Of a stretch of 64,000 nucleotides of DNA, positions 61,817 through 62,009 are shown piece by piece (position 1 is the first letter of the stretch; each line of letters starts with the position of its first letter). Location: assembly GCF_041248615.1 (NCBI RefSeq), contig NZ_CP158426.1; one strand, written 5' to 3'. A program made the position numbers and the translations under genes. A model generated the notes under the pieces. It was not told the origin of the DNA and searched no databases. It saw only the letters and a program-made list of their open reading frames with translations. Source of the stretch: Escherichia coli (lineage in GTDB: Bacteria > Pseudomonadota > Gammaproteobacteria > Enterobacterales > Enterobacteriaceae).

Positions 61817-62009
61817 GTGATCTTCCTTAATGCTATGAGTAATTAAGGCGAACGCTAAATAAATATTGCGTGCTGATATTAAGGCTATGCGCGTGGGGAA
61901 ATTTAAACTGTGAAAGGATTCACAAATAGCTGCGGTTCAGAATGTTATATCCGCAGCTTATTGAGTGAAGTAATAATTATTCTCAATAATTAACAGAAAA
62001 GAGAAAATA

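Follow-up and report, generated by a model that had tools for sequence, protein, structure and literature searches.

PreTA is the bacterial dihydropyrimidine dehydrogenase, the enzyme with which gut Escherichia coli inactivate 5-fluorouracil (bioRxiv 10.1101/820084; PMC11185696). In the main text of both of these reports CRP, the promoter and catabolite repression go unmentioned. Control of the operon by cAMP-CRP, in addition to Fur under anaerobiosis (PMC4676285), bears on the prediction of drug inactivation in the gut. The operon, formerly named yeiTA, appears in the RegulonDB table given in Shimada 2011 (Table S4) as 'yeiTA, activator, -57.5' with the box TGTGAATCTTTTCACA, and the same table places the mglB CRP site at -41.5. 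In the genomic SELEX-chip data of that study (Shimada 2011, Table S3), a cAMP-dependent CRP peak is reported in the yeiS>/>yeiTA spacer at approximately 2.23195 Mb, with the box TGTGAAAAGATTCACA, and yeiT is counted among the 'known' CRP targets. Some of the CRP targets in RegulonDB were, according to the same authors, entered from sequence prediction alone. Furthermore, b2146 was among the top Crp predictions made with PhyloScan in 2007 (PMC1794230). No entry for preT occurs in the supplement of a cAMP-titration transcriptome study.

The 64-kb stretch of E. coli DNA analysed here (the window) carries a palindrome upstream of preT which is this already catalogued cAMP-CRP activator site of preTA; its assignment is correct and not new. 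The site, its attribution to CRP and its activating role can be regarded as catalogued because they are shared by RegulonDB, the SELEX-chip data and PhyloScan, and because the K-12 box TGTGAATCTTTTCACA and the window box TGTGAATCCTTTCACA are only one spacer base apart. The value of the analysis thus lies in confirmation, in a testable repositioning of the CRP site to a putative Class II position, and in the description of a strain-variable preT leader.

The CRP site and its conservation upstream of preT

The yeiS-preT region of the window shares 100 % identity with E. coli genomes, including that of strain 042 and others, in which the genes are annotated as preT and yeiS, and was found in 5424/5426 complete E. 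coli genomes. The locus is oriented opposite to that of K-12, and the order on the minus strand is yeiS (62249-62010), a 193-bp spacer, preT (61816-60578) and preA. The genes and the CRP site are as follows:

62010..62249, minus strand: coding sequence of yeiS, which precedes preT and shares its strand, with the yeiS stop codon at 62010-62012
60578..61816, minus strand: coding sequence of preT, the regulated gene, with its ATG at 61816
59349-60584, minus strand: preA, downstream of preT
61909..61924, centre 61916.5: core 16-bp CRP box, TGTGAAAGGATTCACA on the plus strand and TGTGAATCCTTTCACA on the preT strand, an exact TGTGA-N6-TCACA
61906..61927: 22-bp CRP-sized site including the flanks, ATTTGTGAATCCTTTCACAGTT, with a 5' flank (TAT-N-TGTGA) that is invariant across genera

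A sequence-only reading had pointed out a palindrome at 61909-61924 matching TGTGA-N6-TCACA, and an exact match is present at these coordinates, with two perfect half-sites, a 6-bp spacer, and the G and C expected at positions 4 and 13. The distance of about 95 bp upstream of preT given in that reading is a fair description, as the near edge of the box lies 92 nt and its centre 100.5 bp from the preT ATG. Two perfect boxes occur in the 64-kb window, against an expectation of 0.02 derived from 100 dinucleotide-preserving shuffles, and two or more perfect boxes were held by 0/100 of the shuffled sequences. The second perfect box of the window (55406-55421) is the mglB CRP site listed in RegulonDB.

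Conservation was evaluated in nineteen enterobacterial loci, obtained by scanning species-representative genomes with PreT (Escherichia, Citrobacter, Pseudocitrobacter and a 'Raoultella' MAG), and in five additional loci fetched via PreT homologues ([Enterobacter] lignolyticus, Kluyvera cryocrescens, C. amalonaticus, the locus of a multispecies Enterobacteriaceae protein, and Salmonella). A perfect TGTGA-N6-TCACA precedes preT in 19/19 of the scanned loci, and the box is also intact in [Enterobacter] lignolyticus, K. cryocrescens, C. amalonaticus and the multispecies Enterobacteriaceae locus, so that the half-sites are invariant in 23/23 of the non-Salmonella enterobacterial preT loci examined. 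In these four added loci the upstream gene called is sanA or a divergent cdd, with no yeiS called. For example, C. amalonaticus has a divergent cdd yet keeps the module of CRP box and TAGCCT, and the preT neighbourhood is accordingly not a fixed one. In the single Salmonella enterica preT locus examined, the gene upstream encodes an autotransporter, and neither the CRP box nor TAGCCT nor the leader motifs are present. The spacer alignments have a mean column identity of 67-71 %, within which four islands are invariant, and these include a hexamer at a set distance from the box:

Invariant islands of the spacer: TAT-N-TGTGA...TTCACA (the CRP box); C-N-TAGCCT; GC-N-TTA; and ATTAAGG (part of the Shine-Dalgarno sequence)
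61882..61887, minus strand: TAGCCT, the proposed -10 element, which begins 21 bp after the CRP box and is invariant

The conservation of the CRP box, together with the fixed offset of TAGCCT, is reported here as new. A further conserved block, shared among genera for which yeiS was not called or found upstream (loci L025-L028, approximately 600-690; L016, 1305-1360), lies upstream of the CRP box, for example TTATTGCG / TTATTTGCG ... TGCTATC, in the position that is taken by a hairpin in Escherichia.

Within E. coli, the yeiS-preT spacer occurs as two alleles with 86 % identity, represented by the window (61817-62009) and by the K-12 type, while the flanking genes yeiS, preT and sanA are 97.7-99.6 % identical between the same two alleles. 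Despite this divergence both spacer alleles retain the CRP half-sites, TAGCCT and the hairpin stems. By identity bands, 95 % identity or more to the window allele is reached in 3,943 genomes, and the 80-90 % band, which holds the K-12 allele, comprises 1,455 genomes; the window thus carries the commoner, non-K-12 allele. The divergence of the two alleles may reflect an old polymorphism or recombination. A motif search of the yeiS-preT spacer revealed no FNR, RutR, CytR or second CRP sites, and an Rfam scan of 61600-62300 returned nothing at E-values up to 1.

Given that some RegulonDB CRP targets rest on sequence prediction alone (Shimada 2011), the palindrome might bind CRP without any regulatory effect on preTA, or might be a chance palindrome. 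Both are very improbable, as only 0.02 perfect boxes are expected per window by chance and as the half-sites are invariant in at least five genera amid diverging neighbouring bases. Furthermore, the spacing to TAGCCT is fixed, and a non-functional site would be expected to lose register with the downstream hexamer. The palindrome is thus very probably the cAMP-CRP operator already catalogued for the preTA promoter, most likely of Class II, an explanation which draws on the demonstrated sequence, conservation and fixed geometry of the site, on CRP binding in vitro and on the database annotation. In the absence of glucose, with cAMP levels high, the palindrome at 61916.5 would be occupied by a CRP dimer, and the bound CRP would recruit RNA polymerase for transcription of preT and preA on the minus strand. 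The primary evidence for CRP control of preTA expression in vivo is reportedly that of Zheng et al. in NAR in 2004. The suggestion of the sequence-only reading that preTA is under catabolite control through this box is upheld by the activator label in RegulonDB, by the cAMP-CRP SELEX data and, strongly, by the conservation of the box and of its spacing to a -10-like hexamer. For a putative dependence of transcription on CRP through its AR1 and AR2 contacts, the support comes from that activator label. As to whether this had been shown experimentally, which that reading had left undecided, the answer is positive for CRP binding (SELEX) and for the database status.

Promoter geometry and the transcription start

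TAGCCT begins 21 bp after the CRP box in 23/24 sequences, the window included, and 20 bp after it in one. The 21 bases between the two elements vary freely and are free of gaps, and across loci TAGCCT and the ATG are separated by anything from 64 to 236 nt. The hexamer is weak, matching TATAAT at 3/6 positions, with the equivalents of A-11 and T-7 retained. Taking TAGCCT as the -10 element, the start is calculated to fall at 61875 and the centre of the CRP site at -41.5. The second perfect box of the window, that of mglB, likewise has TATGAT after an interval of 21 bp, and serves as an internal Class II control. The alternative starts considered are as follows:

61874..61875, minus strand: putative CRP-dependent start, from conservation geometry, with CRP at -41.5 or -42.5 (Class II)
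61860..61863, minus strand: position equivalent to the mapped 5' end of K-12, -47 to -44 from the ATG, with CRP at -53.5 to -56.5 in the window allele

The only mapped K-12 5' end found derives from directed 5' RACE, where it is listed as 'b2146 -47 Tttactaaacgctcgccttaa' (Mendoza-Vargas 2009, PMC2760140, Table S1). It was obtained with poly-A tailing of the cDNA, which renders the first base ambiguous, and 5' triphosphates were not determined by the authors (PMC2760140). Relative to this end, the CRP site lies at about -54.5 to -57.5 and not at -41.5. It is from this end that the -57.5 of RegulonDB derives: the leading TTT is ambiguous after poly-A tailing, and a start at the next A (-44) gives -57.5.

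If the RegulonDB geometry is right, CRP is centred at about -57.5 (or -54.5), the start lies at the RACE end (-44 to -47) and a downstream -10 element serves an atypically spaced, Class I-like promoter. Such an arrangement has in its favour that an experimental 5' end exists there and is used by RegulonDB, that the K-12 sequence holds -10 candidates in the right area (TACATT, 4/6 positions; TATTAT, 5/6 positions), and that a start only a few bases further downstream would bring CRP to -60.5 or -61.5. CRP activates at helical phases, namely at -41.5, -61.5, -71.5 and so on. The distances of -54.5 and -57.5 fall off these activating phases, while the ambiguous first base and undetermined triphosphates of the RACE end weaken its reading as a start. 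The candidate -10 elements, furthermore, differ by E. coli allele (TACATT/TATTAT in K-12; CAATAT in the window), and the distance from the box to this start differs by 1 bp between the alleles and by many bp in other genera. The region is also rich in A/U and might be one where the RNA is processed, besides being the point of insertion of an ERIC element. We therefore consider the Class I-like geometry rather unlikely.

We lean instead towards a Class II promoter, with CRP at -41.5 and a start near 61875, since the RACE end is ambiguous, the -10 candidates that would serve it differ between alleles, and other genera have indels in that region. The CRP site would stand in for a -35 element at -41.5 from a start near 61875/61874, and TAGCCT (61887-61882) may act as a weak, activator-dependent -10; both the start and the role of the hexamer are what we infer from the comparison of loci.

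No start was recorded in the yeiS-preT spacer by Kim 2012, possibly on account of low CRP activity in those cultures, and no coordinates in the region occur among the rows listed of the Cappable-seq supplement. Kim 2012 does record a weak start (2 reads) inside yeiS, at NC_000913.2 position 2231827, which is 228 nt upstream of the ATG and was assigned to yeiT, as well as a 13-read yeiS start inside the end of sanA.

Two further observations concern the proposed -10 region. The sigma-S -10 consensus is TATACTTAA. The sequence TAGCCTTAA matches it at 7/9 positions, with the conserved C at -14 and not at the sigma-S-typical -13. A GCCTTAA motif also overlaps the proposed -10 (TAGCCTTAA).

Structures flanking the promoter and the ERIC polymorphism

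Between the CRP box and the yeiS stop codon lies the hairpin GCTGCGG...CCGCAGC that the sequence-only reading had described, with its arms at 61929-61935 and 61951-61957. The stem is one pair longer than was given there, comprising 8 bp (AGCTGCGG/CCGCAGCT):

61928..61958, minus strand: hairpin AGCUGCGG-(15 nt)-CCGCAGCU, then AUUUGUGAAU; a probable yeiS 3'-end structure or weak terminator

The hairpin is located 51 nt past the yeiS stop, and 3 nt separate it from the CRP box. Its core has a folding energy of -12.5 kcal/mol, the whole 3' region has a z of -4.2, and 6/8 of the stem pairs are G-C. Among eight Escherichia sequences the stem positions pair in 100 % of cells, while 6/15 of the loop columns vary. 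Two changes occur in the stem: a single A-U pair has turned into G-U, and a C-G pair into U-A, the latter being compensatory and seen in E. albertii. This covariation is not significant, as 98/500 shuffles also give one compensatory pair, and is suggestive only. In Citrobacter an unrelated hairpin, in which GGGAuuAAUGCUG and CAGCAUUUCCC enclose a 5-nt loop that varies, is found at the corresponding position after yeiS and is followed by UCCCUCA, with no U tract. In Pseudocitrobacter, which lacks yeiS, no strong counterpart of the hairpin was found. The structure can thus be tied to the 3' end of yeiS, given its Citrobacter counterpart after yeiS and the lack of a strong one in the yeiS-less Pseudocitrobacter. 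In the first 40 nt or so after the yeiS stop, the Citrobacter loci (L009-L022) also have a second, AT-rich hairpin, UAUAUUAGC-N11-GCUAAUAU. This is followed by UUUUGAU in C. braakii and the 'Raoultella' MAG, and may be the actual yeiS terminator there.

The sequence-only reading had labelled the Escherichia hairpin the yeiS terminator. This label holds in so far as a conserved RNA-type hairpin is present at the yeiS 3' end, and fits less well as regards the 15-nt loop, which exceeds the short loop (about 3-8 nt) of terminators, and the weak U tract. The tail, AUUUGUGAAU, has 5 U in 10 nt, of which three are consecutive and followed by G, and it overlaps the CRP half-site. It is tenable that the structure is no intrinsic terminator at all, and that yeiS ends by Rho or reads into preTA, with the stem-loop giving protection from exonucleases or being functionless. 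Besides the long loop and the three consecutive U, this accords with the promoter/terminator scan, in which the hairpin at 61928-61958 was not called, with the absence of a U tract after the Citrobacter counterpart, and with the Term-seq data of Adams 2021, which have no yeiS or preT entries, and so no 3' end here, in the portion of the supplement text available. It accords less well with a stable, GC-rich stem that has a compensatory change and directly follows yeiS, and a place just before the promoter is one that fits an insulating terminator. The hairpin is probably a yeiS 3' structure and not a canonical terminator, and may terminate weakly and insulate the promoter. As such a structure, the hairpin (61958-61928) would end or stabilise the yeiS RNA and shield the CRP-dependent promoter from read-through.

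Three more features in the spacer may bear on preTA expression:

61971..61985: Fur-like 7-1-7 box TGAGAATAATTATTA, matching 12/14 positions of TGATAATnATTATCA, between the yeiS stop and the hairpin
61825..61848, minus strand: leader hairpin CCUUAAU-(10 nt)-AUUAAGG, which contributes its 3' arm to the Shine-Dalgarno sequence AAGGAAG
61858..61859: position at which a polymorphic ERIC element is inserted in other strains and which is empty in the window

In every Escherichia locus examined, the centres of the Fur-like box and of the CRP box are 61.5 bp apart. In Citrobacter (11/12 loci) and Pseudocitrobacter they are 72.5 bp apart, one helical turn more. Anaerobic Fur ChIP-seq binding at the preT promoter, together with Fur-dependent activation, has been reported (Beauchene 2015, PMC4676285), and we infer that the box at 61971-61985 is the source of that peak. 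Downstream of the proposed -10, GCCTTAAT (61849-61842) can pair with the ATTAAGG portion of the Shine-Dalgarno sequence. The arms of this leader hairpin are nearly invariant in eight genera-level sequences, with covariation absent. Sequestration of part of the Shine-Dalgarno sequence by the preT leader hairpin may be postulated from the complementarity of the two arms.

A 125-bp ERIC element is inserted at the 61859/61858 junction in 2189/5426 complete E. coli genomes (40 %), and is absent from the window and from K-12. The insert (L003, 252-376) contains the exact ERIC2 primer sequence and matches ERIC1R at 21/22 positions, both of these primers being widely cited. E. albertii (L006) and other lineages of Escherichia (L005, L008) have diverged, longer and shorter forms of ERIC at this site. 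Whichever start-site model is taken, the element falls within the preT leader. Tentatively, the -57.5 of RegulonDB could be artefactual, stemming from a 5' end that is processed or ambiguous, at a Class II promoter with TAGCCT as its -10, to which the Fur-like box and the hairpin covering the Shine-Dalgarno sequence may add layers of control and ERIC possible differences in expression among strains. If true, strains could differ, depending on ERIC, in the expression of an operon that inactivates 5-fluorouracil.

Comparison with known systems

The hairpin downstream of yeiS resembles canonical Rho-independent terminators in having a GC-rich 8-bp stem soon after the stop codon and a U-containing tail. 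It differs from them in its loop (15 nt versus 3-8 nt) and in its tail, in which UUU is followed by G and which overlaps a CRP half-site.

The CRP/CytR promoters cdd, udp and deoP2 are, like preTA, CRP-activated and serve pyrimidine salvage and catabolism, with cdd being a close neighbour. As preTA acts on pyrimidines and is located two genes from cdd, itself a CRP/CytR target, its promoter could be of the CytR type found in the nucleoside regulon, in which tandem CRP sites are bridged by CytR. The preTA spacer, by contrast with cdd, udp and deoP2, has neither a tandem CRP site nor a CytR operator: its 193 bp include no second CRP-like site at up to three mismatches, and neither the TTGCAA nor the GTTGCATT CytR motif. 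A CytR-type promoter is thus extremely improbable.

The closest systems are the RegulonDB yeiTA site of K-12 and the mglBAC promoter. The former shares both locus and box with the window, which differs from it in carrying a spacer allele that is 86 % identical; the RegulonDB site is placed at -57.5, whereas conservation points to -41.5. The mglBAC promoter is Class II and CRP-dependent, and the -10 element of mglB (TATGAT) is much nearer to the consensus than the TAGCCT of preT. mglB is also under the control of GalS/GalR. Where mglB has this control, the preT promoter has the Fur-like box. The two promoters are alike in that a perfect CRP box is followed, after exactly 21 bp, by the -10 element of mglB and by the hexamer proposed for that role at preT.
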